Below, piece by piece: positions 3,404-18,814 of a DNA stretch of 64,000 nt. The stretch spans positions 1 through 64,000 of IMG/VR virus record IMGVR_UViG_3300025132_007963; one strand, written 5' to 3'. Made by a program: the position numbers and the translations under genes. The first letter of the stretch is position 1; every line of letters begins with the position of its first letter. The stretch comes from a virus. The notes under the pieces were generated by a model. The model saw only the letters and a list, made by a program, of their open reading frames with translations. It made no database searches and was not told where the DNA came from.

Positions 3404-3634
3404 TTAACCGTTCAATGCCTCGCGAGCATTCACACCGGTTAAAACGTGCTTTGCTCCATCATTCATAATGATATGAGAACAAACAAGGCCCGGTCTCCGC
3501 TGCTCAAGCCCAATGGCCTTGATGTGATGCGGTGCAATGCCATGTTCAATCTCGAATGCGATCTGTCTGCTCAATTGCTGGCTCAATTGCAACATCTCTT
3601 TTTTCTTCTCTTGGATTGTCATTTTTCTCTGCAC
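3404..3634 (-). CDS. Hypothetical early protein
   Basis: 76-aa ORF downstream of promoter 3722-3750. Confidence 0.55.
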   Translation of the reverse strand: MQRKMTIQEKKKEMLQLSQQLSRQIAFEIEHGIAPHHIKAIGLEQRRPGLVCSHIIMNDGAKHVLTGVNAREALNG

Positions 3635-3721
3635 TTTCTTTTTTTTCCGTGGATGTTTTTTTGTTCATCCGGATTATCGTTGCTAGGTCCCACATATTTT
3701 TGTTTCCTTCATCGTGTATAT

Positions 3722-3806
3722 ACTATCGCACGATTTTTTGTTGGCGTCAAGAAAAAAAATGCTTTTTTTTAAAAAAAATGATTAATCCAATAAATTCCTA
3801 GACTTA
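3722..3806 (-). promoter_or_regulatory. Early promoter cassette (38-bp class, degenerate motif)
   Basis: TTGACG(3745-50)-17-GATAGT; AATAAATTCCTAGACTTA at 3789-3806. Confidence 0.6.
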
Positions 3807-3968
3807 GCGATTTTATAAATCATAACAAGCTCGATAACCTTAAGCGCAATATATAGACTACTAAACACCAGAAAGAAAAACATCATTTAAACAACCCCAC
3901 AATCTTATGACCAATACTCATGACACCCTCAACGCCGATGGCATCACCTAACAAAAAACAAAAAACAC

Positions 3969-4205
3969 CTACAAACAAGTATTGCATTGCACCGCCTTCA
4001 TATTATCCTTATGCACTAAGATGCGCTCGCCATTAGTAGTTAGCACTTTGAATACCTCACCAAAATTAATCAACTTGTATCCAGACTGGCCACGTTTTGC
4101 TAAGCCAAGTACAAGCCCGTAACGCCCATGAAAAAAGATTCGCTCAGCTGGTTTAGCGCTGGACCAATCCCAGATCTGAATCATATCACCTTTTTTTACT
4201 TGCAC
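3969..4205 (-). CDS. KOW/SH3-like mini-protein
   Basis: MQVKKGDMIQI...GLVL...VKV. Confidence 0.7.
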   Translation of the reverse strand: MQVKKGDMIQIWDWSSAKPAERIFFHGRYGLVLGLAKRGQSGYKLINFGEVFKVLTTNGERILVHKDNMKAVQCNTCL

Positions 4206-4404
4206 TGAGCACCTTATCTACTGCAAATATCGAAACCTTGCGACCCTCTGCAGTCATCCATGAGCATGCTGGTTTGCAGTCATGACGGAAATGCACAACC
4301 AGATTACGCACCGTTGATTCGGGGTGACCTGGATGCATCATCTCACGTGCTAACACAATACCCTCATAGCCGCCGCGAACCTCTATTAAATCACCGACTT
4401 TCAT
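4186..4404 (-). CDS. KOW/SH3-like mini-protein
   Basis: MKVGDLIEV...GIVL...VVHF. Confidence 0.7.
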   Translation of the reverse strand: MKVGDLIEVRGGYEGIVLAREMMHPGHPESTVRNLVVHFRHDCKPACSWMTAEGRKVSIFAVDKVLSASKKR

Positions 4405-4591
4405 TGATCACCTCTAAGTCATAATTCCAGACATTATGCCCTATTGTACCATCTTGCCATGAAATGTCAAACACTTTATTACTAGATGTGACACCGCATA
4501 GTGGATCAAACACTTCTCGGAGAATCACACCAAGCCTCTCTTCAGCTTTGCGGTTTGGATAGATATCCTTAATCATATCACCGATTTTCAT
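4391..4591 (-). CDS. KOW/SH3-like mini-protein
   Basis: MKIGDMIK...GVIL...ISW...LEVINESR. Confidence 0.7.
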   Translation of the reverse strand: MKIGDMIKDIYPNRKAEERLGVILREVFDPLCGVTSSNKVFDISWQDGTIGHNVWNYDLEVINESR

Positions 4592-4706
4592 ATGTCCCCT
4601 TATGCTTTATTTTTCGAGTATACTTTTTTTTGTCACGATGAGCTTTAACGCCACCACCATGACGTAACACCAGCGCAACGGCATATGGATTTCTGATCTG
4701 TTTCAT
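4578..4706 (-). CDS. 42-aa basic protein MKQIRNPYAVALVLRHGGGVKAHRDKKKYTRKIKHKGTYENR
   Basis: Hand-translated; SD AGGAG; first gene after promoter 4735-4763. Confidence 0.75.
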   Translation of the reverse strand: MKQIRNPYAVALVLRHGGGVKAHRDKKKYTRKIKHKGTYENR

Positions 4707-4734
4707 TTCCGTTGCTCCTCTCGACTACTTTTAA

Positions 4735-4819
4735 AGTATCGCACAAAAAAAATTTTCGCGCAAGAAAAAAATCGCGAAATCGACAAAAAAATGAAATCCC
4801 GAATAATATCAAGTACTTG
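4735..4819 (-). promoter_or_regulatory. Early promoter cassette (38-bp class)
   Basis: TTGCGC(4758-63)-17-GATACT; AATAATATCAAGTACTTG at 4802-4819 contains a perfect WATCAANNNNTTR. Confidence 0.75.
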
Positions 4820-5051
4820 CGTCTTGTGCATCTTTTATATGATTTTGCTCATAAACTGATGATAACACAAAGACAATCGATGCTTCTTCTAGTGATAAGT
4901 TTTCATCTTCTAGCTTTTGGTGTATCTTTTCCTCATCATCGACGTTTAAGATATACCATGCTAACCTTTTCAACTTAGGCTTGTTTTTATGATAGTCCTC
5001 TCTAGTCACTTGATAGTGTCTCTGCAAACTCATACACATAGGACATTGCAT
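4809..5051 (-). CDS. Hypothetical protein
   Basis: 80-aa ORF ending inside the IHF-like motif. Confidence 0.5.
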   Translation of the reverse strand: MQCPMCMSLQRHYQVTREDYHKNKPKLKRLAWYILNVDDEEKIHQKLEDENLSLEEASIVFVLSSVYEQNHIKDAQDAST

Positions 5052-5157
5052 ATATACTGGTTACAAATACTAAACCAATTGTAGCGCAACTAATATCGAT
5101 TAATTTATTTTTAACGTATCTCTTCATGTAATAATTATATTATGATTCTTTTTTTAT

Positions 5158-5421
5158 TTAATCGATCCGTCGCTTAAGTGGGTCATAACAAACGTGATCT
5201 TCAAAACAATCGCGAAGACGACGATAAACAATATCATCGGCATCTCTACAATAAGGCCTCTCATAATAGCCGGCTGGATCGCAGATTGTTAATGTAACAG
5301 TGCCGGTGGTAGTTTTATCACAGTAGTACTTTGTTTCTTTATATTCCATGTCCGTGGGGTCGCAAAAGCTAGCATCACAAGCAACCGATAAACACGCGAT
5401 GACAAAACAAATAATTTTCAT
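5158..5421 (-). CDS. Small Cys-rich putative lipoprotein (start corrected to MKIICFVIACLSVAC)
   Basis: Signal-peptide-like N-terminus with lipobox-like SVAC, multiple Cys. Confidence 0.6.
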   Translation of the reverse strand: MKIICFVIACLSVACDASFCDPTDMEYKETKYYCDKTTTGTVTLTICDPAGYYERPYCRDADDIVYRRLRDCFEDHVCYDPLKRRID

Positions 5422-5425
5422 GCTA

Positions 5426-5575
5426 TTATTCCTTAGTTTCCTCAAACTTATCTTTCTCAAGCTCAACAACATCAACATCAAACTGTGTGTTGGTGCGATA
5501 CATAGAATATTTTTGGCCCTTTGTAACCATACGACGCTTGAGTGATGGGCGCTCGAAACCACTATTCCATCTCAT
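5426..5575 (-). CDS. Hypothetical protein (start MRWNSG)
   Basis: SD AAGGAG before ATG 5575. Confidence 0.5.
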   Translation of the reverse strand: MRWNSGFERPSLKRRMVTKGQKYSMYRTNTQFDVDVVELEKDKFEETKE

Positions 5576-5641
5576 AATATAATACTCCTTTTGTTTAAGT
5601 GTCAGACATACTAACACAAAAAATGTTTTTTTAAAATAGAA

Positions 5642-5833
5642 TTATTTATTGTTGTAGAATTTTTCCCAGCTAGTCTCAAAAGTATAGTGCAATGCCGTCA
5701 TGATGACGACAAAGGTTGCAGTCATGACAAGAGATCTTTGTATCTCCCCTAGAAACATATATGTTATCCCTACGCCTACCGTCGTAGATAAAACACGCCA
5801 TGCTATAACCTTTCGCACTATATCTTTTTTCAT
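5642..5833 (-). CDS. DUF2061-like small membrane protein
   Basis: K..AWR....T...and HY.FE..W motifs, two TM helices. Confidence 0.7.
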   Translation of the reverse strand: MKKDIVRKVIAWRVLSTTVGVGITYMFLGEIQRSLVMTATFVVIMTALHYTFETSWEKFYNNK

Positions 5834-5836
5834 ATG

Positions 5837-6046
5837 CTAGGTATTCTCGCCCTTTGGTGATGGGAATCTGCTATGGTCACCCATACCATCATAATCAGTT
5901 ATATCATTTGCACGCTCAATTCTTTTTACATCGCTATATTTTGATGTCGTAAGAGATTTAAACGTACTCCTTAACATAAGTATGATACTAGATGTGCCAA
6001 ACACCATGGTAAATACTTTTACAAACTCTAGTAAATTACTTGACAT
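5837..6046 (-). CDS. Small membrane-anchored protein (DYDGMGDHSRF motif)
   Basis: N-terminal TM segment, SD AGGAG. Confidence 0.6.
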   Translation of the reverse strand: MSSNLLEFVKVFTMVFGTSSIILMLRSTFKSLTTSKYSDVKRIERANDITDYDGMGDHSRFPSPKGENT

Positions 6047-6048
6047 AT

Positions 6049-6219
6049 CTACTCCTTGTAATGATTAGCCAGACCCATCAAAGTAGGCGCCCAAAGACCG
6101 ATAAAAATACCAAACCTTTCTGCATGTGCTGGGTCGCCGTCGCCAGCTGTTACCCATGCTCCAATTGAACACGCAACCGATGCCAATGAGGCAAAGAAAC
6201 AAAACTTAGACAAATTCAT
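6049..6219 (-). CDS. 56-aa two-TM protein (ERFGIFIGLWAPTLMG)
   Basis: Hand-translated; SD AAGGA. Confidence 0.65.
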   Translation of the reverse strand: MNLSKFCFFASLASVACSIGAWVTAGDGDPAHAERFGIFIGLWAPTLMGLANHYKE

Positions 6220-6251
6220 ATTAACTTTCCTTTCTTAATAAAATATGATTG

Positions 6252-6324
6252 TGGGCCACCCCGGACTCGAACCGGGAACCAGCGGATTAAAAGTCCGATG
6301 CGCTGCCAATTGCGCCAGTAGCCC
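6252..6324 (-). tRNA. tRNA-Lys(UUU)
   Basis: Cloverleaf GGGCTAC/GTGGCCC, anticodon loop CTTTTAA, TTCGA T-loop; no encoded CCA. Confidence 0.95.
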
Positions 6325-6374
6325 CCATGGTGGCCTTTTATCGTGACGTGCCAAGGTCACTTTTTTATTTGTAC

Positions 6375-6461
6375 CTACTTCTTTGAAGGAGGGTTGTTAT
6401 CTCTACCACCACCACTAGGGTTACCAGTAGTGGATGGCCATCCACCGTTATTGTTACTCAT
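6375..6461 (-). CDS. 28-aa peptide MSNNNGGWPSTTGNPSGGGRDNNPPSKK
   Basis: Hand-translated; ATGA-coupled to upstream micro-ORF. Confidence 0.6.
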   Translation of the reverse strand: MSNNNGGWPSTTGNPSGGGRDNNPPSKK

Positions 6462-6553
6462 GGACTGTAATCCCAGTCTTCAAAATAACCAAAGTCTTCG
6501 TAATAATCTTCATCATCACTTCGACCGGGTACGCTACATACGAACTTATTCAT
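6458..6553 (-). CDS. 31-aa acidic/aromatic peptide MNKFVCSVPGRSDDEDYYEDFGYFEDWDYSP
   Basis: Hand-translated; SD GGAGG. Confidence 0.6.
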   Translation of the reverse strand: MNKFVCSVPGRSDDEDYYEDFGYFEDWDYSP

Positions 6554-6636
6554 ATTATAATCCTCCATGATTGTTAGAATAAGCGTGGTTTATTTAAAGA
6601 CAATTTCCACAAAATGTCTTGTCTATCTGCGAGTGA

Positions 6637-6825
6637 TCAGCTCCGGATAGGTTGACGAAACAGTGAGCAAATAGAACAAGGCTCTGCCCCAAACATATTT
6701 GCTATCAGTTCACCGCTTGCAAGAGCCGCTGGCTCCTGTAGGCATACGCGTTTTTCCACTTTTCTGACGGTTCCCCTTGCTATTTCGATTTGCTTACTAT
6801 AGCACAAAATCCCCTTGTGCGTCAA
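6637..6825 (-). CDS. Hypothetical protein
   Basis: 62-aa ORF in operon context. Confidence 0.4.
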   Translation of the reverse strand: MTHKGILCYSKQIEIARGTVRKVEKRVCLQEPAALASGELIANMFGAEPCSICSLFRQPIRS

Positions 6826-6833
6826 GTAATATT

Positions 6834-7028
6834 TTATTTAAATTCAATAATTTTTGCCTCCGTATTAAACTCTCCCCTAACGAGGAAAATCTCCGGATCA
6901 CCATCTGTAAATCTAGCCTTGACCACATGATTAATGTGTTGTGGCTGATATGTATCTGGCGCAGTCATGGTTTTGAACTCTACGACAATTCCAACTCTGC
7001 TTCCATGCTTTACCGTTTTTCCTACCAT
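6834..7028 (-). CDS. KOW/SH3-like mini-protein
   Basis: VGKTVKH...VGIVVE...VKARF. Confidence 0.6.
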   Translation of the reverse strand: MVGKTVKHGSRVGIVVEFKTMTAPDTYQPQHINHVVKARFTDGDPEIFLVRGEFNTEAKIIEFK

Positions 7029-7357
7029 GATATGTTCCTTTCTACATAAATATCATATTCGCAAGGATCGCCCTCACGTTGGACATCATCATCAGATTCG
7101 CCCACAATTACCATTCCAAACTCGCCGGTGTTGTCATTTAGCTGACTGAGAAAATTATTAAACAGCTCAATTTCTGGATAGCATTCATACCACTTGATGC
7201 TATCCCAGAATATCTTATTTGTATCTTTGTATTCGTTCACATCTGCATCTCTAAACAACTCCTTAAGATTTTCATTGCCAGAAAGCTCGACGTATGCCGC
7301 CAATGCTTCAAATACATTGTCATTCATACCAATACAGACTTGAGATCTATAACCCAT
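7022..7357 (-). CDS. Phage hypothetical protein (MGYRS... / VIVGE.DDD family)
   Basis: Recognisable termini typical of phage early proteins. Confidence 0.7.
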   Translation of the reverse strand: MGYRSQVCIGMNDNVFEALAAYVELSGNENLKELFRDADVNEYKDTNKIFWDSIKWYECYPEIELFNNFLSQLNDNTGEFGMVIVGESDDDVQREGDPCEYDIYVERNISW

Positions 7358-7535
7358 TACTTACACCCCTTACACACATAACCGCCCCACTCTGGCTTTC
7401 TTGCATTAGGGAAGTATTCATTGCAATACAGGCAATCGATGCCATAGATGGTTTCACCATTATAATAACCTGTTTCTCTATCAAACTGTAGTCTATTTGA
7501 CCTTTGAATAAATCTAATTCTAGCCTTACCTGCCA

Positions 7536-7736
7536 TTATCGACCTATACCCCGTGCCATACTGGTTGAACTAACATATTGATATGCACCTTTATTATAAG
7601 CTGGAGCTGTACACTTAGCCTTTCGAGCTGCTTCAATCCTAGCATTGGCAGCACCGCACTCCAAGCACGTCTTATAACCTAACGCTTTACGCTTTGGACT
7701 GTACTCTTCCCAACACTCAACACAAACGGCAACCAT
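7536..7736 (-). CDS. C4 zinc-finger protein, DksA/TraR-like finger
   Basis: CVEC-x11-GYKTCLEC plus C-terminal PAYNKGAYQY. Confidence 0.65.
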   Translation of the reverse strand: MVAVCVECWEEYSPKRKALGYKTCLECGAANARIEAARKAKCTAPAYNKGAYQYVSSTSMARGIGR

Positions 7737-7781
7737 TATCTATCCTTTCTTGACAGCGTGACGATATCAGTGACAATACGG

Positions 7782-7970
7782 TCACGTTCTTCCTTTGGAT
7801 ATGAAGACAGAATCGCTAACCTTTTGGCTTCTGGAAATTCTATTAGGTGCTCTGCTACCTTGCGTATATGTCTGGGGGTCCATTCCGATAGTCTGATATA
7901 GTTCTCCCTCATTTAAATTTCCTTCCAATGCATTTTTAATATATTGCGCGAAGCGTTGTCTCGGGTTCAT
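7782..7970 (-). CDS. Hypothetical early protein (start MNPRQRF)
   Basis: SD GAGGGA, directly after promoter 7994-8022. Confidence 0.6.
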   Translation of the reverse strand: MNPRQRFAQYIKNALEGNLNEGELYQTIGMDPQTYTQGSRAPNRISRSQKVSDSVFISKGRT

Positions 7971-7993
7971 GTTTTCCCTCACTTTCTTTATAC

Positions 7994-8067
7994 ATCATAC
8001 AAAATCTGGGCGATAAAATCAAGAAAAAAATGAAAAATCGTAAAAGTTCAATAATTTCGAGAGGTTA
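7994..8067 (-). promoter_or_regulatory. Early promoter cassette (27-bp class)
   Basis: TTGATT(8017-22)-17-TATGAT; AAAAATCGTAAAAG; AATAATTTCGAGAGGTTA at 8050-8067. Confidence 0.85.
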
Positions 8068-8236
8068 CGAGTTCTAAACTAATTTTGTTGTGCCATAAAA
8101 CTGAACTATATCGAGTGTTCCACTTAACACAAACATCGTTATTATCGCATTTAATAATGAGACCAAAGAATTTTTTATGTACACGATCAGATATATACTT
8201 GCTTTCCCTATATCTTACAATATCACCGACTTTCAC
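8048..8236 (-). CDS. KOW/SH3-like mini-protein
   Basis: (M)KVGDIVRY...GLII...VKW. Confidence 0.75.
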   Translation of the reverse strand: MKVGDIVRYRESKYISDRVHKKFFGLIIKCDNNDVCVKWNTRYSSVLWHNKISLELVTSRNY

Positions 8237-8378
8237 TGACTACCTCTGTATCATCCCTGTGAACTCGGTACTCTCCATCAGGGAAGAGAACATAAAACCC
8301 GAAAGGAATAATCCTAGTGATAATACCAAGGGTTAGCTGGGGTTGACTTACTTGTCTTACCAAATCACCGACGTTCAC
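8223..8378 (-). CDS. KOW/SH3-like mini-protein (start GTG 8378)
   Basis: (M)NVGDLVR...GII...EVVSESR. Confidence 0.7.
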   Translation of the reverse strand: MNVGDLVRQVSQPQLTLGIITRIIPFGFYVLFPDGEYRVHRDDTEVVSESR

Positions 8379-8541
8379 TGATAACCTCCAGTGAATCTGA
8401 ACAGTGGTTGAAATGTTCACCATTCATATCAAGCCAAGCAACTTGGCAATAGTCAATATCAACATACGTTCGGACCACAATGCCGATGGCGCGGTGCTCT
8501 TTTGGCATATCGTTGTGTGTTACCAAATCACCGACTTGCAC
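8365..8541 (-). CDS. KOW/SH3-like mini-protein (start GTG 8541)
   Basis: (M)QVGDLVT...GIVV...VAW...LEVISERR. Confidence 0.7.
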   Translation of the reverse strand: MQVGDLVTHNDMPKEHRAIGIVVRTYVDIDYCQVAWLDMNGEHFNHCSDSLEVISERR

Positions 8542-8737
8542 TGATAACCTCCAGGTCATGATCCCATTCAGCTATGGTAGTACCAAGCCCATTCCACTTT
8601 ACATAGAGGACGTTACAATGATACTTACCATTGTCACCGGCTGGGCCGGTGACAATCCCTATCGTGCGGTGACGTAGATCGCCCATGGTTCGTTCGCCTA
8701 TCCACTTCACCAGACTGCCCATCTTTAGATGTTCCAT
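8528..8737 (-). CDS. KOW/SH3-like mini-protein
   Basis: KMGSLVKW...GIVT...VKW...LEVISASR. Confidence 0.7.
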   Translation of the reverse strand: MEHLKMGSLVKWIGERTMGDLRHRTIGIVTGPAGDNGKYHCNVLYVKWNGLGTTIAEWDHDLEVISASR

Positions 8738-8790
8738 CTTCTTCCTTTTCTTTAAAGAATGTTAAACCGCGTAACAACGCTGTCCAAAAA

Positions 8791-9720
8791 TCAACCACTA
8801 CTTATGATTCTCCTGTACTCAAAGAGTGCCAGTTCTTTCTTTTTACATTCTAGCATCATATCGTAATTATGTCCATAGTTTTCTACAGGATTATATATAT
8901 AATCTGAGTGTGCTTGCGGCCTAATCTTGTTATCTCGCTGTTCCTCTGCTCTAGATTCTGATAAATGCACAACAGGTACAACATCTTCTGGCCAGGTAGA
9001 CATGGCTAGAGTTAACGCTTGTTCCTCAGTCTGGCCACCTGTACAGAAACGATGGTGATGATAATCAAATACAATTGGCACACCAGTCTCTTGATGAATG
9101 TAATCGTGAAGATGCTTTGTGGACCACATGCTTGCTTTATCATCATTTTCTAGTGTCAGTCTCTTTTGGCAATTCTTATCCAGCCTCTTAAATGCTTTAC
9201 ACCAACGCTTGGCGGTGCCTTCAAAGTCTCCACCGTATGTACCACCGACATGAATATTAATCTTATTATAGTGACTGGCGTTAATAAAACCCATCATATC
9301 AAATATCTCAGAATGAGAGTTTAGCTCTTTAACTGCTTTATCAATAACACTTTGCTTTGGCGAGCCAAGTACATTAAATGGCCCAGGATGGAATGTAAGC
9401 CTTTGCCCTGTTTGGTACGCATACTCGCCCGCAATATCAAGATTGTATATAATATCATTGTAGTCGGGTAACTCCGAAAATTTGTATTCAGACATCCACG
9501 GGAAAATATCCGAAGACATGCGATAAAAATCAATACCGTTTTGATTATTCCACTTCAATATCTTTAATAGGTCTTTCACGTTTTGCAATGAAATCTCGGA
9601 TGCATATGCAATACCTTTGGATGCGAACGTTCTCTTTATCATAGACCTGTTGGTTGTAATGCGCCTAGATTTAGGAACATCAGATAGTGTCATGTTGATA
9701 CATGCATAGCCAAGTTTCAT
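8791..9720 (-). CDS. uvsE: UV-damage endonuclease (UvsE/UvdE family)
   Basis: MKLGYACIN, FYRMSSDIFP, RLTFHPGPF, INIHVGG, LTLENDDK, FDYHHH, HSDY, MLECKKKE motifs. Confidence 0.93.
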   Translation of the reverse strand: MKLGYACINMTLSDVPKSRRITTNRSMIKRTFASKGIAYASEISLQNVKDLLKILKWNNQNGIDFYRMSSDIFPWMSEYKFSELPDYNDIIYNLDIAGEYAYQTGQRLTFHPGPFNVLGSPKQSVIDKAVKELNSHSEIFDMMGFINASHYNKINIHVGGTYGGDFEGTAKRWCKAFKRLDKNCQKRLTLENDDKASMWSTKHLHDYIHQETGVPIVFDYHHHRFCTGGQTEEQALTLAMSTWPEDVVPVVHLSESRAEEQRDNKIRPQAHSDYIYNPVENYGHNYDMMLECKKKELALFEYRRIISSG

Positions 9721-9854
9721 AATTAGTTTATCTTTCTACGTGTTTTGTGTAAAGAAAATACAAACCTATGCCAAATGAAAAACATAGGAACGCTGCAACA
9801 AAGACTTCGATGGCACACTTAATCTCTGCTAACTGAAAATTTAATACGGATGCT

Positions 9855-10184
9855 TCACCCATCTTGTGGCCATGGCCCTTTTATAATCTTACCAGAAGCA
9901 ATACCTTCTTCTAGGGTATCATCCTCTATCCTCTTGAGAACTTCCTTGTATTCATCAGTAATAGACCATACAACCTTTTCATCATCTTCCCCGTCGAACG
10001 AGCCTGCAACCTTGCCCTCGCATACACACGCCAGGAGAGCGCAATATGTTGTAGCTGCAGATGGATCATCTAACAGGCCCTTCTCATAAGCATTAACAAG
10101 ATCTTTTAAAATTTGTGACGCTTGTGAATCAACATTTTTTTCAATGTCTTCTCTATCTAGGCCCAATTCGTTGTCGAAAAACAT
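9855..10184 (-). CDS. Hypothetical acidic protein (start MFFDNEL)
   Basis: SD GGAGG before ATG 10184; promoter upstream. Confidence 0.7.
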   Translation of the reverse strand: MFFDNELGLDREDIEKNVDSQASQILKDLVNAYEKGLLDDPSAATTYCALLACVCEGKVAGSFDGEDDEKVVWSITDEYKEVLKRIEDDTLEEGIASGKIIKGPWPQDG

Positions 10185-10211
10185 ACTTGTAAAACCTCCA
10201 TTAGTTTTTAT

Positions 10212-10284
10212 ATTATTACATTGAAACCCAAAAAAGTCAATGAAAAAACACAAGATTTCAAAAATCAATAATTTCAAGAACTTA
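10212..10284 (-). promoter_or_regulatory. Early promoter cassette (26-bp gap)
   Basis: TTGACT(10235-40)-17-AATAAT with TG extension; AATAATTTCAAGAACTTA at 10267-10284. Confidence 0.8.
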
Positions 10285-10433
10285 CAGGCTTCTCTATATT
10301 ATCACAAAGCTCACTTATTGAGATCCAGATTGATTTTCTAGTTCCAAGTATTCTAACTAAGCACTTATCTTTCTTAACCATAAGAACTTTGCCATGGCCA
10401 CCTAAGTTTGGTAACCAGATCATGTTATCATTT

Positions 10434-10748
10434 TTATGTTTTATCTCCATGCAGCCTTCTTACGTTCTTTAAAAAATCTTTTGCTTTCTTTGGTACGTGA
10501 CCGGGTTTAACTCTCTCTATTATATCTAAACTTGGTTCGCAAAACTCACCGTTATCAGGCAAATATATTAATGGCTTACCAAAACCAACATCTACCCTAA
10601 CAACAATGCCCAAATTACCTTTTGCTTCATAATCAAAGACATCATAGCTCTCTGTAAACTTAACCATCTCTCCACGTACTAAAAATTCTTCTTGTTTAAT
10701 AGCTAGGTTTGACACTTTCGATAGTTTCCTTTTTGTAAAAGTCTCCAT
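10434..10748 (-). CDS. KOW/SH3-like protein
   Basis: RGEMVKF...LGIVVR; true start probably internal. Confidence 0.55.
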   Translation of the reverse strand: METFTKRKLSKVSNLAIKQEEFLVRGEMVKFTESYDVFDYEAKGNLGIVVRVDVGFGKPLIYLPDNGEFCEPSLDIIERVKPGHVPKKAKDFLKNVRRLHGDKT

Positions 10749-10912
10749 CTTCTACCATTCCACCAATTGATTTGCCCTATCTTATTTAAGACCAAGACAT
10801 CTCCCAAATGAGGATTAACTCTTAATACAACACCGTGGTCTAAAAGCTCCTCATCGAAAGTAGAATTTTGTATCAGATAACAGACAACTAAATCACCTTT
10901 CTCTATATGCAC
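10703..10912 (-). CDS. KOW/SH3-like mini-protein
   Basis: EKGDLVV...GVVLR. Confidence 0.65.
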   Translation of the reverse strand: MHIEKGDLVVCYLIQNSTFDEELLDHGVVLRVNPHLGDVLVLNKIGQINWWNGRRWRLLQKGNYRKCQT

Positions 10913-10933
10913 ATAACTAATTAGCTACCAGAG

Positions 10934-12121
10934 CTACTCAATAGCAATGATTCTCTCGTTGGTCGAGAAGTACGGACGGCTAGCATGTTCTGGTGTAGTC
11001 ATCCACATACGCTGACACTTACTAGCCTTTGGTTTTGGAGCGTACAGATCTGTTAGCACAATGTGGCCATCGAATTCGCGATCATTCACATAATCAGTCG
11101 GTGGATTAAAATCAGTACCACCACACATAACACGCTCCCAGCTGCGTCTTTCGCCCTTCTTCCAAGTGTAAACGAGACTTTCATCCACCTTGGTATCAAA
11201 AGGGATGACTGTGAATTCTGCCAGAGCTGAGAGCTTGTTTAGCTCAGCAAAAAACTTAGCTAGCATAACATCATCAACAGACCCAGACTGATCAATACTA
11301 ATTGCAACCTTAGCAACTCGATTAATCTTACGGCCAGGATGTACATATGCATAACGTCGATTAATTCTCTTGATTGAAGATGTCTTGTTGGACCTCTGAG
11401 ACGTCTTGATAAAGTAACGCAATACTTTTTTCCAGTCTACCTTTGTCTGTAGACTATCCATAATTTTACGTTTACACTCTGATGTAACACTGCCCCAGTT
11501 TCTATTCTTTGATGCTGTCTCGGCAGCAGACTTAACAATTTCCTTAAGTCGTTCCTTCGCTATCTCCTTTACCTGTGCATCAGTCTCACCCCAACCTGAG
11601 TGATCATCCAGTGGCTCCATACCGCTAGTAGGCTCTGAGCTATCATCCGGGTCACCATCACCAGAACCACCACTACTCTCAAAGTCTTCTGGCAGGTTTT
11701 CCATATACCATTCAGCAGACATGCCGGATGGTAAATCTTCAAATGGAGTGCCTTCTTTGCCTGGAATCAGGCCACCTTCTGGTAAATTGTTAAGGTGACT
11801 ATTGATTGCAAGATCTGTAGCGATATTCCATCGCTTAGTCATCTTGCCTTCTGGCATTCTCTCAGTCACATGCATGAAGATAATGTGGTAAAACTCATGC
11901 TTCAAAACATCTAGTCTCTCAAGGTCATTAAGACCGCCGAAGAACTCTGGATTATAGAACATCTCAAACTGAGCTGTATCAGGATTGACCCTAACACCGG
12001 CAGTAGGGATGCTCAATGAGACACGCTTATCGATACGACGCGAGATAGCTGCAAAGAAAGGCTCTTCCATTAAGAGCCTAGCGGTATGCATATTGAGATT
12101 GAAATCAGTATTAGCCTTCAT
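10934..12121 (-). CDS. Putative metallopeptidase plus VWA-like domain protein (DUF2201 type)
   Basis: HEFYH (HExxH), ATDLAINS, acidic linker, IDQSGS (DxSxS), GGTDF, LTD. Confidence 0.85.
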   Translation of the reverse strand: MKANTDFNLNMHTARLLMEEPFFAAISRRIDKRVSLSIPTAGVRVNPDTAQFEMFYNPEFFGGLNDLERLDVLKHEFYHIIFMHVTERMPEGKMTKRWNIATDLAINSHLNNLPEGGLIPGKEGTPFEDLPSGMSAEWYMENLPEDFESSGGSGDGDPDDSSEPTSGMEPLDDHSGWGETDAQVKEIAKERLKEIVKSAAETASKNRNWGSVTSECKRKIMDSLQTKVDWKKVLRYFIKTSQRSNKTSSIKRINRRYAYVHPGRKINRVAKVAISIDQSGSVDDVMLAKFFAELNKLSALAEFTVIPFDTKVDESLVYTWKKGERRSWERVMCGGTDFNPPTDYVNDREFDGHIVLTDLYAPKPKASKCQRMWMTTPEHASRPYFSTNERIIAIE

Positions 12122-13160
12122 TCTTTTCACCACCAAGAATTTCTACCAAAAAGTCTACAATACCTTCTGCGCCGTGCAGCTTGATTGTGTTCTTCATTTC
12201 ACCATTGCCAAGAACAGTCCACAGCTTCATTGCAACCTCAGATGGTAAAGAGGTAAAGTACTTTGCCAGGTTATCAATCTGCTCTTCAGGAAGTTCTTCC
12301 TGAAAAGAATCTGCAGCATCAAACTTCTCAATCAAAGCAGTGTGATCATTGATACCAAATGATTGAACTTTTGAAAAGTCACCCTTGATCAAGATATCCT
12401 CTGGCGTAACTTGCCTATCATAATTGGCAATAAAATCATTGAAGGCAACTGCAGCCTCTAAACCAACGAATGCAGCTGACAAATTAAACAACGTAGGGCT
12501 AGCCTCTTGCAATAGATCTGCGGACTGCAGACACGTGTTTAGGCGCTCCCATGACCGTCGAGAAGGGTAAACCTTGTTTGGTTCAAAGTCTTCATTGTGC
12601 TCAAGATGAGAACGATTATTGTTGATAAAATCCCACACTTCCTTACCAACATTATCCTTAGCCCATGACAACCAATCCTCGACCGATGGCTCAATATCAA
12701 ATACAGTCCAGCGATCAAGCTCGGCGGGATCCATCTCACCGACTTGATATTGCTCGCCATGTTCACCACCATTGACAGCAGCAAAGATTTGAGTGTCAGG
12801 ATGCAATACATGGCCATTGAGCTTGCGGCTATCTGTTAGCTCAAAGATACCCTGGCGAACCTCTAGCGTTGCACGGTCAATCTCATCAAGAAATAGAATG
12901 ACGGGGTTATCGCATGCATGCTTAAACCAATCTGGTGGGTTAAAGCGAGTGCTATTGCCCTCGATAACAGGAAGGCCAACCAAGTCACCCTCAGTCATCT
13001 GGGAAGCACGGCGCTCAATAACAGTCATGTTAACTATATCAGCGTACTGATACACAACCGTAGACTTACCGATACCGTGGCGCCCACGAAGCAAAACTGG
13101 TTTGCGGACATCAGTCACGAAACCGACAATATTTGTAAACGTCTTGAAGTCAACTGCCAT
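12111..13160 (-). CDS. MoxR/AAA_5-type AAA+ ATPase
   Basis: Walker A GRHGIGKS, Walker B LFLDEIDR, DPAELDRW, PSRRSWE. Confidence 0.88.
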   Translation of the reverse strand: MAVDFKTFTNIVGFVTDVRKPVLLRGRHGIGKSTVVYQYADIVNMTVIERRASQMTEGDLVGLPVIEGNSTRFNPPDWFKHACDNPVILFLDEIDRATLEVRQGIFELTDSRKLNGHVLHPDTQIFAAVNGGEHGEQYQVGEMDPAELDRWTVFDIEPSVEDWLSWAKDNVGKEVWDFINNNRSHLEHNEDFEPNKVYPSRRSWERLNTCLQSADLLQEASPTLFNLSAAFVGLEAAVAFNDFIANYDRQVTPEDILIKGDFSKVQSFGINDHTALIEKFDAADSFQEELPEEQIDNLAKYFTSLPSEVAMKLWTVLGNGEMKNTIKLHGAEGIVDFLVEILGGEKNEG

Positions 13161-13211
13161 GATGTTTCTCCTTTTTTGAATGGCTAAGTTTTTCGTTCAA
13201 CATCTAAAGTA

Positions 13212-13285
13212 AGTATCCCATAGACCGGGACAAAAATCAATAACTTTTTTAAAAATCGTAAAAGCTCAATAATTTCAATCACTTA
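13212..13285 (-). promoter_or_regulatory. Early promoter cassette (27-bp class)
   Basis: TTGATT(13235-40)-17-GATACT; AAAAATCGTAAAAG; AATAATTTCAATCACTTA at 13268-13285. Confidence 0.85.
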
Positions 13286-13845
13286 GATCGTCTTAATTGA
13301 ACCAGCTTTTCAAATGCTTTCTTTTGAAGGGCAGGTATGCTTGTGGTGGACATAATCATTGCTAACTCTTCATTAACATTGGGGTGTTCTAATAGTCTTT
13401 GACACCAGTACTCAGGGCGCTGCCAACTGTTTGTATAGACTTCTCTAGGCCTATAGTAAGATAAGTATATATCTTTTAGTGTCTCGACTGGGGTATTTGG
13501 GACGCCATGAAGCGCCTGGTGATAGGATCCAGCAATAAAAGTTTGACCAACCCTCCATGGGATACGAAAAGAGTGTGTTGTCTGTTCCCATAGCTTAGAG
13601 ATAGTCTCTGGTTGATCGTTTAGATTGCAATACTGTATCATAAGCCATTTAATACTATTCGCCTTACTGTTGGTTAATATATCTATAGCAGATGGTTTCA
13701 ACTCAGGGTTCATGGCCAAGTACTTACGACACAATAGATACTTATGACTAGCTATAGCACATTGCGTCTCTTCATCGATAAATCGATTTTGAGCTAATCC
13801 GTTAAGTTCCTTGTTTGTCATTCTAGGGACAAATTTTGCAAACAT
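13279..13845 (-). CDS. Helical-repeat (LRV/HEAT-like) hypothetical protein
   Basis: LAxNP and LLEHPN repeats. Confidence 0.55.
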   Translation of the reverse strand: MFAKFVPRMTNKELNGLAQNRFIDEETQCAIASHKYLLCRKYLAMNPELKPSAIDILTNSKANSIKWLMIQYCNLNDQPETISKLWEQTTHSFRIPWRVGQTFIAGSYHQALHGVPNTPVETLKDIYLSYYRPREVYTNSWQRPEYWCQRLLEHPNVNEELAMIMSTTSIPALQKKAFEKLVQLRRSK

Positions 13846-13848
13846 GAT

Positions 13849-14064
13849 TTAATTATCCAGTTTTTTGATTTCACCCTCAATGGTGCGAATATAACTAACA
13901 ACCGCAATCATTGCATCGGAAGATAGTATACCTTCATAATTCTCCAAGTGACAAGAATCAATATGAGATTTAAGAATAGCCAAAACCTTATTCAGTCTAA
14001 CTGTTTTTTTTGCTGGTGACCGTAAATCCATACCGGGATATAATTCAAATGGATCGAGTTTCAT
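13849..14064 (-). CDS. Hypothetical early protein
   Basis: 71 aa, SD AAGGAG, after promoter. Confidence 0.65.
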   Translation of the reverse strand: MKLDPFELYPGMDLRSPAKKTVRLNKVLAILKSHIDSCHLENYEGILSSDAMIAVVSYIRTIEGEIKKLDN

Positions 14065-14090
14065 GTTTACTCCTTTTCTGATCTTTTAAA

Positions 14091-14164
14091 ATCATAGCGT
14101 AGAAACTTAAATTTGTCAAACGTTTTTTTAAAAAACGTAAAAATACAATAATTTCAATAACTTA
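14091..14164 (-). promoter_or_regulatory. Early promoter cassette (27-bp class)
   Basis: TTGACA(14114-19)-17-TATGAT; AATAATTTCAATAACTTA at 14147-14164. Confidence 0.88.
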
Positions 14165-14167
14165 AGT

Positions 14168-14350
14168 TTATCTCCCATAAAGAGAATCGACACGTTTTTT
14201 TCTATCTTCCTTCCTCTTTAAAGAAGATACTTCTTTTTTATTTTGCTCGACTAATGAGACAAACCTTGCAACCGAGTAGACCATTAAGATCATTATGAAT
14301 GCATCTAATAAGTTAATTTTAATACCTTCCGTTTGATTTCCACCAGTCAA
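14168..14350 (-). CDS. Small membrane protein
   Basis: One TM segment and a basic tail. Confidence 0.5.
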   Translation of the reverse strand: MTGGNQTEGIKINLLDAFIMILMVYSVARFVSLVEQNKKEVSSLKRKEDRKKRVDSLYGR

Positions 14351-14410
14351 TTAACATTTGGCCTACCCATAAGCCAACTGCAATCGTAATCACACTACCT
14401 AAAAACTCCA

Positions 14411-14635
14411 TTATTTATCTCCTTTGCTCACCATTTTTAGCCACTTTGCCCTAACCACCGAAGGTGTATTATTTTTATTAAACAATACCACACATGAGTA
14501 CTCATCCTTGTGCAAGTTTCTATCTGGAGGTTGATCTACATAGGGATTTACTTCTAAAATAACCGCCAACTCTCCGCAGTTAGGGCTCATTCTATACACG
14601 CATTCTGCTAGGTCACCCTTGCTAAATTCAGTCAT
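14411..14635 (-). CDS. KOW/SH3-like mini-protein (start MTEFSKGDL)
   Basis: KGDLAEC...AVILEV...VVLF. Confidence 0.65.
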   Translation of the reverse strand: MTEFSKGDLAECVYRMSPNCGELAVILEVNPYVDQPPDRNLHKDEYSCVVLFNKNNTPSVVRAKWLKMVSKGDK

Positions 14636-14942
14636 CTTCTTGCTGCTGCCTTTGTCGCTCAAAGTACTTCTTCTTAGAAAAGAATTTTAAATCTGATCTT
14701 AGAAAGTATTTATCCCACCTACGACGACCGGGAGGACCGTTTTTCTCTCCCTCTGGACCAAGCCATTTAACAACATATCCAGTTCGCTTGTGATCCTTGT
14801 AGTAATGGCCATCGCTATAGTACACATCTTTCACTCTTGTTATCATGCCCACCATGTTATCTACATCATGACCACAATGAAACCATATAAAGTTTCTTTT
14901 AAATGCAACACTGGACAAGGTTACTAAATCTCCAGCTTTCAT
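14628..14942 (-). CDS. KOW/SH3-like protein (start MKAGDLV)
   Basis: KAGDLVT...GMIT...VVKW. Confidence 0.7.
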   Translation of the reverse strand: MKAGDLVTLSSVAFKRNFIWFHCGHDVDNMVGMITRVKDVYYSDGHYYKDHKRTGYVVKWLGPEGEKNGPPGRRRWDKYFLRSDLKFFSKKKYFERQRQQQEDD

Positions 14943-14964
14943 CTCTTTCTTTTTTCTTGCCATT

Positions 14965-15675
14965 TTATTTTATCTTCTTTGCTCTTTTAAGGTCTCGCTC
15001 CTCTGCGTAAATAGGCTTTGGATATCCGACTGGTAATATTTTGTATGTCCTGCAGCCTTTTGCACACGTTATCGGCATTTTTGCATTGTCCTCAATAACA
15101 ATCGCATATTGCTCTCTCATGCTGTTTTTAAAGTAAGTATTATTTAGTTTAACTAAACTCATCAATCGATTGATTCTAATCTGTACTTTATCTCCTTTCT
15201 TGAAACGTGGCTCCCTCGTTAGTTCATCAATGATACGTTCTGAATACTTATTCTCACACAGGCTTTGGTATTCCTCGCACGTTAGGTTTTCGTCTGCGTC
15301 AACCTTTGTTCTGGTATTTTTGAAATAAGCACCGTGATCAATCTTAGAGTAAAACTCTGATGCAATCTTAGCGTTTTTCTTTCTCTCTTCACTGTAATCC
15401 CAACTTAAATTGGCATGGTAGCTATTTTGTGAATACTTCTTATTCATTGATAAAAGGTATTGTGACTGAGAGTGTGTGAGAGATTTTACTTTCCCGTATG
15501 CTTGCATGCTTTTAAGAATTTTCATAATATCATCGTGGCTCTTGTTATAGAAAGGGCATGGCAATGATGCACCCATCCATGTTTTAACCTTTTTTATGAC
15601 ATACTCTATTTTATCATCGCTAGACGAGTGATAAAAATATCTTTCATTCTCAAATAACTCAGAACTCATTGACAA
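14965..15675 (-). CDS. Hypothetical protein with C-terminal KOW/SH3-like domain
   Basis: C-terminal RFKKGDKVQI...AIVIE...YKIL. Confidence 0.65.
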   Translation of the reverse strand: MSMSSELFENERYFYHSSSDDKIEYVIKKVKTWMGASLPCPFYNKSHDDIMKILKSMQAYGKVKSLTHSQSQYLLSMNKKYSQNSYHANLSWDYSEERKKNAKIASEFYSKIDHGAYFKNTRTKVDADENLTCEEYQSLCENKYSERIIDELTREPRFKKGDKVQIRINRLMSLVKLNNTYFKNSMREQYAIVIEDNAKMPITCAKGCRTYKILPVGYPKPIYAEERDLKRAKKIK

Positions 15676-15875
15676 TCACCTTCACTTACTACTTCAAACT
15701 CACGTGGACTGTGTAGTTCGGGCTTGCGACCTGGATAGACCACTTTTATTAACCTTCCTGTACCTAAAATGCCGCCTGAACATGCATTTGTGCTTAAACA
15801 AATTGCTACGGCCCTTTTCTGCTGGTGTAGCTGCAGCATACCCCATCGTTTTACAACCAAGTCACCGACTTTCAC
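15666..15875 (-). CDS. KOW/SH3-like mini-protein (start GTG 15875)
   Basis: (M)KVGDLVV...EVVSE. Confidence 0.7.
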   Translation of the reverse strand: MKVGDLVVKRWGMLQLHQQKRAVAICLSTNACSGGILGTGRLIKVVYPGRKPELHSPREFEVVSEGDCQ

Positions 15876-16062
15876 TGATAACCTCCAAGTTTTCTCTAAG
15901 GGACCAAAATGTTCCATACTCGCCATAGTTTACCTTATATGTTTCTAGGCTTGGCTCATCTTCAGGGGCACATGCTACAACGATACCAATGATACCATCA
16001 ACATATGCAACGTTGTAGCGGTTCTTTTTCTTAACAAGAGTTCCAACTTTTATGCTTTTCAT
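15862..16062 (-). CDS. KOW/SH3-like mini-protein
   Basis: KVGTLVK...GIVV...LEVISESR. Confidence 0.7.
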   Translation of the reverse strand: MKSIKVGTLVKKKNRYNVAYVDGIIGIVVACAPEDEPSLETYKVNYGEYGTFWSLRENLEVISESR

Positions 16063-16272
16063 TTAGGAGTTCATTTTCTTTAGTGCTGATACAACCATTG
16101 ATACTGGTTTGGATGCATCAGTGAACAATACTTGACATAATTGATCGGTGTCCTCAAAACATTTAGGTCCAATATTGTATAATAGACCAGGCTTATTACC
16201 ATAAACAACGAGGTCACCAACTTTAATATTTTCCATTTGTTTATCCATTACAATCGTTATCCTCGGTGTCAC
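16063..16272 (-). CDS. KOW/SH3-like mini-protein
   Basis: IKVGDLVV...GLL...VLF. Confidence 0.65.
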   Translation of the reverse strand: MTPRITIVMDKQMENIKVGDLVVYGNKPGLLYNIGPKCFEDTDQLCQVLFTDASKPVSMVVSALKKMNS

Positions 16273-16520
16273 AGTAAGTTTTGCTTAATCCAGTTAAAGA
16301 CTTCATTGGAAACGACAAGTCTATCATTTTCGTCATCCATACATCGATGCTCATTGGCCTCCAGAACCTTTCTGATACCAACAAATACCCTTTCATCCCT
16401 GTATGTTGGATCGTCAATAATAGAAGTATTGTGAGGTGTGAAGCCTCTAATTTCGGAGTGTACTGTATTTTGCACCCACTCTATACCTCTCTCCGTTACT
16501 TCGTTCTTTTCTTCAGTCAC
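16269..16520 (-). CDS. Hypothetical early protein
   Basis: 83 aa, SD AGGAG, after promoter. Confidence 0.65.
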   Translation of the reverse strand: MTEEKNEVTERGIEWVQNTVHSEIRGFTPHNTSIIDDPTYRDERVFVGIRKVLEANEHRCMDDENDRLVVSNEVFNWIKQNLL

Positions 16521-16561
16521 AAAAAACTCCTTTCTTTATGTTTCCTCGATGTGACTTATAT

Positions 16562-16635
16562 ATAATACAAAATCTCATGATCAAAATCAAGAAAAAAATA
16601 AAAAATCGTAAAAGTTTAATAATTTCAAGGGTTTA
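16562..16635 (-). promoter_or_regulatory. Early promoter cassette (27-bp class)
   Basis: TTGATT(16585-90)-17-TATTAT; AAAAATCGTAAAAG; AATAATTTCAAGGGTTTA at 16618-16635. Confidence 0.85.
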
Positions 16636-16810
16636 CAACTTCTGAAATAACAGACCACATAGTTTCCGTCAGTTCGCATGCGGAGCCCAAAGATAAGTCA
16701 TACCTCTGATCTCCTAAGACCAAAGTAATATCATTATCGCTCTCGTATATTTGTACAAGAATCATATCTCCGGATGTAGTTGTTATATATAGCTCTTCAG
16801 TTTCTTTCAT
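16625..16810 (-). CDS. Hypothetical acidic protein (start MKETEEL)
   Basis: SD AGGAG; ends inside the motif. Confidence 0.55.
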   Translation of the reverse strand: MKETEELYITTTSGDMILVQIYESDNDITLVLGDQRYDLSLGSACELTETMWSVISEVVNP

Positions 16811-16811
16811 C

Positions 16812-16997
16812 TTATCTCCTACAGTGTTCGTAAAGTATCTTATAAACCCTTGCATTTTCTTTTTCTAAAAGAGATGCATATTTATGCAATAATTTAACTT
16901 CATGAAGTATTGCACCCCTCTCTACCTTTTGACCCGCAGCAAAGCCGCAAACAAATATGACAACACTCAATATTATAATTGTAAGTTTATCTCTCAT
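16812..16997 (-). CDS. Small membrane-anchored coiled-coil protein
   Basis: N-terminal TM helix. Confidence 0.55.
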   Translation of the reverse strand: MRDKLTIIILSVVIFVCGFAAGQKVERGAILHEVKLLHKYASLLEKENARVYKILYEHCRR

Positions 16998-17007
16998 AAA
17001 TTTTTAG

Positions 17008-18276: not shown

Positions 18277-18495
18277 TCAACTAAATTTAACTATCTCTCT
18301 CTCAGAAACCCACCAATGATCATCTAGCGATTGAAAATAAACTTGATGAGTAAGTCCAGATGGCCATGGATTTTTATCAACTTTTACCAATAAACCTATT
18401 GAACCCTCTTCTAAATAGACAATTGGACTAAATGCAGTTGTAACATTTGTACTAGCGATTGATTGACAAACCTTTACCAAGTCTCCAATCTTCAA
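18277..18495 (-). CDS. KOW/SH3-like mini-protein
   Basis: KIGDLVKV...GLLV...VYF. Confidence 0.7.
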   Translation of the reverse strand: MKIGDLVKVCQSIASTNVTTAFSPIVYLEEGSIGLLVKVDKNPWPSGLTHQVYFQSLDDHWWVSEREIVKFS

Positions 18496-18680
18496 TTTAG
18501 TTTCACCAAATCCTTAAACTCTACTTTCTTTACATCGCTAGTATTATTAAATTTAAGAAACCATCGGACGGATGCTCTTCCCACTAGCGTGTGAATTTTT
18601 GTAATTATACCAATCATTTGATTGTGCGGTATATCCACATGCACCACAAGGTCTCCCAACTTAAAATTATCCTCTAACAT
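18492..18680 (-). CDS. KOW/SH3-like mini-protein
   Basis: KLGDLVVH...GIIT...VRW. Confidence 0.7.
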   Translation of the reverse strand: MLEDNFKLGDLVVHVDIPHNQMIGIITKIHTLVGRASVRWFLKFNNTSDVKKVEFKDLVKLN

Positions 18681-18687
18681 TTAAAAG

Positions 18688-18761
18688 CGCCCTCGGCACG
18701 ATTCGAACGTGCGACCTGCGGTTTAGAAGACCGATGCTCTATCCAGCTGAGCTACGAGGGC
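18688..18761 (-). tRNA. tRNA-Arg(UCU)
   Basis: GCCCTCG/CGAGGGC acceptor, anticodon loop CTTCTAA, TTCGA T-loop; no CCA. Confidence 0.95.
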
Positions 18762-18814
18762 TTATTTTTAAATTATGGCACAAACCTTATAAAAATGCAA
18801 GAGAATACTTAGGT

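Follow-up and report, generated by a model that had tools for sequence, protein, structure and literature searches.

A dual-coding junction joins predicted SH3-like mini-genes of a marine phage and very probably serves as a crossover site for cassette shuffling

Tandem arrays of mini-genes and their junction

The window analyzed here, 64,000 nt of viral DNA (positions 1 to 64,000 of IMG/VR record IMGVR_UViG_3300025132_007963), carries three tandem arrays of minus-strand mini-genes, hereafter cassettes: array A (3969-4591), array B (8048-8737) and array C (15666-16272), with ten genes in total (Table 1). Most neighboring cassettes are linked by a short junction in which the end of one gene, a Shine-Dalgarno (SD) sequence and the start of the next gene are written into the same nucleotides. 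This dual-coding junction joins mini-genes whose products are predicted to be SH3-like, and it very probably serves as the crossover site for cassette shuffling.

On the minus strand, a 24-mer consensus is present at 4391 (2 mismatches), 8223 (2), 8365 (1), 8528 (1) and 15862 (0), in exact agreement with a first-pass annotation of the window, and matches arose in 0 of 100 dinucleotide shuffles. These five copies are the sole ones across the 192,821-bp viral record. The 24-mer forms the core of a ~32-nt junction, which extends roughly from -12 to +19 as counted from the start codon of the downstream gene. Its upstream frame reads GAG GTN ATC AGT GAA AGT CGG TGA, or E-V-I-S-E-S-R-stop, preceded by L (LEVISESR-TGA) and varying among the window copies as E-V-I/V-S/N-E-S/R-R-stop. 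The downstream gene opens at the embedded GTG, or in the case of 4404 at an ATG, which changes the upstream Ser to Asn, and begins M/V-K/Q/N-V-G-D. Its start lies 11 nt ahead of the upstream TGA, creating an out-of-frame overlap of 14 nt, and the SD sequence GGAGGT sits within the upstream LEV codons, with GGAGG ending 6 nt before the start codon. The dual coding described earlier (an EVISESR end, an SD sequence and a V/M-KVGD start) is thus evident on reading the minus strand. Two degenerate copies reported near 4201 and 15676 are real but altered: the first has a 20-nt overlap, and the second is a relic with a 4-nt deletion and no family start. None of the promoter-like sites in 3500-17000 falls within any junction, and the repeat is wholly coding.

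The ten cassette proteins of the window (~60 residues) are homologous at 15-32% identity and display the common pattern KVGDLV ... GIV ... V.W..G ... LEVIS. Their gene interiors are unrelated at the DNA level, as had been proposed, with no blastn match at E<0.09 and a mean global identity of 0.54 versus 0.52 for shuffled controls.

Spread of the junction among related contigs

The degenerate 24-mer is matched exactly in no fewer than 119 stretches of IMG/VR contigs, of which many are 185-312 kb long, against an estimated chance expectation of <1 match for the 64 variants of the 24-mer. A family hidden Markov model (HMM), applied to about 1.2 Mb of fetched loci, revealed about 1040 genes whose start codon falls on the first position of the profile (558 ATG, 471 GTG). 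The start-minus-stop distance of consecutive same-strand family pairs is -11 in 559/921 and -1 in 46/921. Across 508 unique canonical junctions, conservation climbs sharply at -12, remains high through +19 and drops to background beyond. Most unique pattern matches (179/197) join two recognized family genes, and the other 18 mostly lead from a family gene into a downstream gene that starts with MKVGD and then diverges.

One gene inside an array encodes a small membrane protein (L037:1464-1664, minus strand) that is 30% identical (E 2e-10) to the product of window open reading frame (ORF) 5642-5833. It begins with VKVGD and ends in an ESR-stop overlapping the next MKVGD gene; its window homologue has a junction at neither end. 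Because the L037 gene bears both junction ends, the junction is graftable onto an unrelated gene.

Array order and crossovers at the junction

The UvdE-like gene, a handy anchor for this phage group, marks >596 related IMG/VR loci, with an amino acid identity of 54-82% in the 80 retained loci. The number of family genes adjoining it in one run varies between 0 and at least 18. The closest loci examined (74-82% UvdE identity) contain homologues of the window cassettes in different combinations, and in L125 a B4-like gene comes after a C2-like one. Among recurrent cassette types with a canonical downstream neighbor, 27/37 have more than one neighbor type. Array order is therefore far from invariant among relatives, with whole cassettes inserted, deleted or swapped. 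Clustering at >=70% identity resolves 1259 family genes into 902 types, including 702 singletons. The first-pass annotation suggested accordion-like array assembly; accordion amplification of the poxvirus style was rejected: just 4 within-array pairs reach >=80% identity (identical copies having been collapsed beforehand), and the pattern is one of shuffling old, diverged cassettes.

Individual exchanges can be positioned by comparing pairs of contigs that come from different samples and match at 99-100% identity over kilobases. L013 and L015 (99.5-100% identical) differ by one cassette of 176 nt, with the crossover confined to a common 20 nt, ATGAAAGTCGGTGATTTGGT, from the start codon onward. 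L124 and L149 differ by four cassettes (694 nt), and diagnostic bases on both sides limit the crossover to the GTCGGTGA core. L127 and L128 differ by one cassette with a 40-nt repeat at its borders. In the same pair (L127:10589-10650 versus L128:10764-10825), the first ~40 nt of the next cassette differ at about 12 positions and the remainder is 98.7% identical; a short tract of conversion or an additional crossover within the cassette may explain these ~40 nt. L128 and L129, whose flanks are 98.9% identical over 9.5 kb, have mosaic arrays in which cassette a1 is swapped for an unrelated one between a0 and a2, both of which stay 99-100% identical; counterparts of a1, a16 and a17 (89-93% identical, 91% for a1) reside at other array positions. 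For array A of the window, contigs of two runs from other studies (~97% identical) join 4398 to 4586, removing cassette A1 as 187 nt, exactly one period, and the two ends so joined have only ATGAAA and TCGGTGAT (6+8 nt) in common. Gain, loss, replacement and relocation of cassettes are precise and in register, with crossover intervals inside the motif.

Across all fetched loci, 61/62 unique internal ends of high-scoring segment pairs (HSPs; >=95% identity) near family genes fall in the junction range, defined as +17..+27 of the family start codon for right ends and -20..+1 for left ends, compared with 25% under a uniform null; these breakpoints derive from about 13 distinct contig pairs. Together with the intervals delimited by single-nucleotide polymorphisms (SNPs) inside the motif, they support the earlier proposal of short-homology recombination at the junction. 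Joints between junction copies (e.g., 4414 to 15856 and 8246 to 8356) were discarded, as their sides measure 21-34 nt and come from other motif-bearing cassettes, and holes in contig cover over B2/B3 were not used as evidence. An indel between L061 and L096 was likewise set aside as unrelated to the junction. There, two loci that are 99.6-99.95% identical (L061:7220-7520 versus L096:2925-3005) differ by a ~215-nt segment that holds the 3' end of a tRNA gene and is bordered by a short TTTACATT repeat, which may mark another, promoter-like type of cassette border in these phages.

A passive array, in which paralogues were duplicated and diverged in place and the motif consists of conserved coding ends with no role in rearrangement, is improbable. 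Dual coding and the SD sequence do account for most of the motif's identity, and the cassette proteins are homologous at about 20-40% identity, both in keeping with such a history. It is contradicted by the single interior swapped between near-identical neighbors in L128/L129, with its 91% match elsewhere in the array, by the multi-cassette indels with crossovers within the motif, by the changing neighbors and by the apparent rarity of recent tandem duplicates.

Assemblers that switch strains or arrays at a repeat could mimic shuffling; all data are assemblies, and Logan k=31 contigs visibly break at junctions. We regard such switching as a highly improbable cause of the pattern. Exact identity between junction copies usually extends over 8-25 nt, below assembler k-mers. 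The sequence shared at the A1 deletion is too short for a k=31 mis-join, and the deletion recurs in contigs of two runs that belong to separate studies. Every variant retains the two reading frames as well as the 14-nt overlap, and the variant cassettes are under purifying selection.

The precise cassette borders and the highly conserved short site would also suit site-specific recombination at an attC-like or similar site by an unrecognized recombinase, a reading that we consider scarcely credible. No conserved hairpin, stem-loop or other inverted-repeat structure is present in the junction (fold z-scores of the five copies +0.64, -0.19, -1.55, +0.84 and +0.92), and no tyrosine or serine recombinase was found in the record, which is estimated to be 71% complete. 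The crossover intervals vary, from the 20 nt of L013/L015 to the GTCGGTGA core of L124/L149 and ATGAAA/TCGGTGAT at A1, and HSP ends spread across about 45 nt.

Origin of junction conservation

Position -5, synonymous for the upstream gene and ahead of the downstream ORF, is essentially free (0.17 bit), and the common junction variants, including GTN at -5, preserve both frames. Position +8 is C in 418 junctions, A in 67, G in 18 and T in 5, where C and A both give Arg upstream (CGG/AGG) and Val downstream. Position +14 (GAT/GAC) and the following Leu and Val codons vary freely. Codon choice differs strongly with overlap: Gly at codon 4 is GGT in 99.7% of overlapped genes, 55% of non-overlapped genes and 30% of interior Gly codons; GTC occupies codon 3 in 73% of overlapped and 38% (108/288) of non-overlapped genes, against 21% of interior Val codons; and GTG starts account for 65% of overlapped genes versus 17% of non-overlapped genes or array heads. 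The ESR tail is found in 296/471 overlapped genes versus 26/226 genes without a recognized family start over the stop and, because it is rare without overlap, the ESR-stop is a by-product of KVGD in the other frame. The tails of non-overlapped genes are diverse, and their LEV codons often lack GGAGG. LEVIS and KVGDLV are structural strands, and overlapping coding, together with the start, stop and SD sequence, explains most of the junction conservation. Retention of the DNA identity for recombination is not supported, as the identity is mostly demanded by these constraints; the recombination role is best read as their consequence and not as a proven selected function.

Several observations count against the overall reading of a dual-coding crossover junction. 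Position -2, the third base of the Ile/Val codon, prefers C over A and strongly over T (ATC 304, ATA 72, ATT 22), unlike interior ATC/ATA/ATT usage (32/25/42%), and no such preference is seen upstream of 242 first-in-array genes. Although 167/508 junctions of the first locus set were retrieved with C fixed at -2, the depletion of T persists without them. Something beyond coding and generic SD constraints acts at this position, so that the coding and SD demands cover most, but not all, of the identity. Extended anti-SD pairing (GGAGGUGAUC) was considered as a cause of the C at -2, and the lack of preference in first-in-array genes weakens it. Examples of the -2 position in the window lie at 4406 and 8543. 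Furthermore, all comparative evidence consists of metagenome assemblies and not of single molecules or isolates, and any one event may be an insertion or a deletion. HSP ends must run into a motif common to all cassettes, and for that reason the breakpoint histogram alone does not tell exchange within the motif apart from selection that keeps genes intact; events delimited by SNPs are stronger evidence, yet few (3-4). Finally, the failure to find an integrase or resolvase, including PF00589, applies to a 193-kb record that is incomplete.

It is possible, if unlikely, that the junction is itself selected as a universal adaptor, a recombinase-free, translation-level counterpart of the integron that is kept up at the DNA level, with exchange-capable lineages being favored. 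Any small gene gaining an MKVGD start and a LEVIS-ESR end would then be pluggable, expressed and exchanged among co-infecting phages. The 902 types among 1259 genes and the pervasive changes of neighbor fit this idea, as do the foreign membrane-protein gene fitted with the junction, the lean of non-overlapped starts toward junction codons (GTC 38% versus 21%, GGT 55% versus 30%) and the unexplained preference at -2. Conversely, position -5, the other free site, shows essentially no constraint, codons relax strongly without overlap, the residual codon bias can be a memory of a recent internal position, and sequence alone cannot show second-order selection for evolvability.

Fold and relatives of the cassette proteins

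The ten cassette proteins have no match in a Pfam profile scan (E<=1), including KOW (PF00467) and YorP (PF09629), and none in a PHROG scan. Cultured phages yielded no match to 3900-16300 by megablast and none to cassette C1 by tblastn; 570 relatives of the family, all unnamed, were found in marine metagenomes at E<=0.001. The AlphaFold model of C1 (65 sequences), with a predicted local distance difference test (pLDDT) score of 82, comprises strands at residues 9-12, 25-31, 41-45, 51-55 and 59-63. Foldseek matched it to YorP (PDB 2heq, E 0.022), PetP, Tudor and SH3 chains (E 0.02-0.1, TM about 0.6-0.7), with no match at E<=0.001 (best 0.02). Spt5 KOW chains follow at ranks 26-35 (E 0.08-0.09), below these folds. 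In a protein-atlas search, the nearest named neighbors were YorP and DUF4314 clusters, with a YorP feature score of 0.90. The model points to an SH3-like five-strand small barrel of an unnamed family; the earlier label of KOW genes is not upheld, since the fold is generic and KOW is one possibility among several.

Orthologous cassettes across contigs show a median ratio of nonsynonymous to synonymous substitution rates (dN/dS) of 0.12 (151 pairs) and a pooled polymorphism ratio (pN/pS) of 0.20; given this purifying selection, the cassettes are real genes. Elsewhere in the window, ORFs at 10274-10912 and 14411-14963 have similar KGD/AGD N-terminal motifs, genes at 18277-19108 appear to be more distant members with weak family-HMM scores, and a 236-residue protein (14965-15675) bears a family-like domain at its C-terminal part. 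Overlaps among the small genes at 10274-10912, 14411-14963 and 18277-19108 are mostly of the ATGA type. These genes and the C-terminal part of the 236-residue protein are possibly distant relatives of the barrel family.

Table 1. Cassettes, junctions and other genes of the window
Feature	Position	Strand	Description
Cassette A1	4391-4591	-	66 aa
Cassette A2	4186-4404	-	72 aa
Cassette A3	3969-4205	-	78 aa; final gene of array A
Cassette B1	8528-8737	-	69 aa; opens array B, directly behind the UvdE-like gene
Cassette B2	8365-8541	-	58 aa; GTG start
Cassette B3	8223-8378	-	51 aa; GTG start
Cassette B4	8048-8236	-	62 aa; final gene of array B; tail LELVTSRNY, without SD codons
Cassette C0	16063-16248	-	Start uncertain (16248, 16236 or 16272); joins C1 by TAA-ATG, not by a canonical junction
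Cassette C1	15862-16062	-	66 aa; modeled five-strand SH3-like barrel, pLDDT 82
Cassette C2	15666-15875	-	69 aa; GTG start; final family gene of array C
Junction A1/A2	4391-4414	-	EVINESR-TGA over ATG-KVGD; ATG start 4404
Degenerate junction A2/A3	4186-4205	-	20-nt overlap (two extra codons); SASKKR-TGA over GTG-QVKKGD
Junction B1/B2	8528-8551	-	GTG start 8541
Junction B2/B3	8365-8388	-	GTG start 8378
Junction B3/B4	8223-8246	-	GTG start 8236
Junction C1/C2	15862-15885	-	Perfect consensus; GTG start 15875
Relic junction, C2 end	15666-15690 (about)	-	4-nt deletion, frame-broken; next gene opens via ATGA overlap and is not a family gene
UvdE-like UV-damage endonuclease gene	8791-9720
GroEL	25010-26593
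DnaE-type polymerase	34790-38245		1151 aa
RecA-family recombinase gene	48201-49325	-	PF00154, 124 bits

The phage

The source record is an IMG/VR viral contig with 37% G+C. In the window, it encodes GroEL, a DnaE-type polymerase, ribonucleotide reductase, a DnaB-like helicase, a MoxR-like ATPase, the UvdE-like endonuclease and three tRNAs. The best cultured-phage matches are at or below about 30% identity, and the phage is not T4-like and has no close cultured relative. The stretch is held by runs of marine or seawater origin, both metagenomes and viromes. In a scan of a genome collection, the junction motif turned up only in marine bins of metagenome-assembled genomes (L205-L214), assigned to Halobacteriovorax, Legionellales, Flavobacteriales, Peribacter, Rubritalea and others. 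The contigs concerned most likely belong to phages and were mis-binned into bacterial genomes and, their taxonomy being inconsistent, they give no host clue.

In relatives, a TTGACx-17-TATAxT promoter-like sequence stands directly after array ends (L047 near 10607; L026 near 5323 and 10265; L061, minus strand, near 4158). Since sigma70-like promoters begin where arrays end in these examples, each array looks like one early polycistronic unit. No Erf or RecT was found in the phage, and the RecA-family protein is a candidate enzyme for the exchanges.

Proposed mechanism and significance

The setting is a series of tandem paralogous mini-genes in the early region of an uncultured giant marine phage (at least about 190 kb), where three constraints converge on the junction. 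The last β-strand of the upstream protein (LEVIS) is specified by codons that double as the GGAGGT SD sequence; the start codon is the second constraint; and the first β-strand of the downstream protein, M/V-KVGDLV, supplies in its other frame the upstream ESR and TGA. Translation of each gene is most likely coupled to that of the preceding gene through the embedded SD sequence and the start 11 nt before the stop. The prevalence of GTG inside arrays and ATG at array heads is consistent with coupling or with the coding constraint alone.

Each cassette carries the same roughly 20-35 nt at both ends around interiors without DNA similarity. As the only homology available, the junction very probably acts as the crossover site for homologous or microhomology recombination, and the RecA-family enzyme or template switching may carry out the exchange within a genome or between co-infecting relatives. 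The outcome is that throughout the phage population whole cassettes are gained, lost, replaced and moved, precisely and in frame, and the dynamics are those of shuffling an old, very diverse pool and not of amplification. Of the original picture of a plug for short-homology array assembly without an integrase, recombination at the junction stands, alongside a RecA-family gene in a record where no integrase was found; accordion amplification is not seen.

It is a long-standing debate whether phage mosaicism arises from homologous exchange at short conserved linkers or from illegitimate recombination at random sites with subsequent selection. The junction system offers an unusually clean case, with hundreds of identical-register junctions, an evident cause of conservation and natural variants that narrow crossover intervals to 8-20 nt. 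It shows how the overlap of coding frames can, as a by-product, generate and maintain substrates for recombination, hints at a simple principle for designing exchangeable gene cassettes with coupled translation, and brings to light a very large unnamed family of tiny, predicted SH3-like proteins in abundant uncultured marine phages. If the adaptor reading were true, the arrays would form an ocean-wide combinatorial library (>900 types sampled, far from saturation) of SH3-like binders serving early host takeover or counter-defense.

Comparison with known systems

No description of the cassette family or of the junction was found in the searchable literature. YorP of the Bacillus SPbeta prophage, PetP, Tudor and Spt5 KOW domains are likewise small SH3-like barrels with about 60 residues and five strands; unlike them, the cassette family has no Pfam, PHROG or cultured-phage sequence match.

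Translationally coupled overlapping genes use ATGA- or TAATG-type overlaps and termination-reinitiation. The junction resembles them in its SD sequence within the upstream ORF and its start near the upstream stop, an arrangement found in 559/921 pairs, and in its tolerance of GTG starts. It differs in its fixed 14-nt overlap, in conserved residues in both frames and in its family-wide repetition.

Integrons share with the junction arrays the small promoterless cassettes, a conserved bounding site, upstream expression signals and variability among relatives. In contrast, no IntI-type integrase was found for the junction arrays in the 71%-complete record and no attC-like hairpin is present, crossovers do not occur at a fixed point, and the cassettes overlap in coding sequence.

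The linker model, reportedly advanced by Susskind and Botstein in 1978 and by Botstein in 1980, holds that conserved short sequences at module borders are sites of homologous exchange between modules that are otherwise unrelated, and Clark et al. are said to have described boundary sequences in lambdoid phages in 2001. Lambdoid linkers are sparse and debated. The junctions are likewise short border sequences and realize this idea of modular phage evolution; they differ in that hundreds share one motif and that the cause of conservation, overlapping coding, is evident.

The closest described parallel is found in the PeSLs (promoter-early stem-loops) of T4-type phages, intergenic elements of ~100 bp that combine a sigma70 promoter with a terminator stem-loop and at which homologous recombination is proposed to shuffle ORFans, delivering each gene with its expression signals (Arbiol et al. 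2010, PMC2839356; Comeau et al. 2014, PMC4122927). A PeSL is a short conserved expression signal that recurs among the small, non-essential early genes of hyperplastic regions. Close relatives differ by indels and replacements located at this repeat, as they do at the junction. The junction is shorter (~32 nt versus ~100 bp), lies within two overlapping frames instead of between genes and has neither promoter nor hairpin. It supplies an SD sequence, a start and a stop, making it a translational unit, whereas the PeSL is a transcriptional one. Its conservation stems from dual coding, it flanks mostly one protein family instead of unrelated ORFans, and its phage, with a DnaE-type polymerase, is not T4-like. 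By this analogy, the junction is a translational counterpart, in an unrelated phage lineage, of the PeSL shuffling cassettes of T4-type phages.

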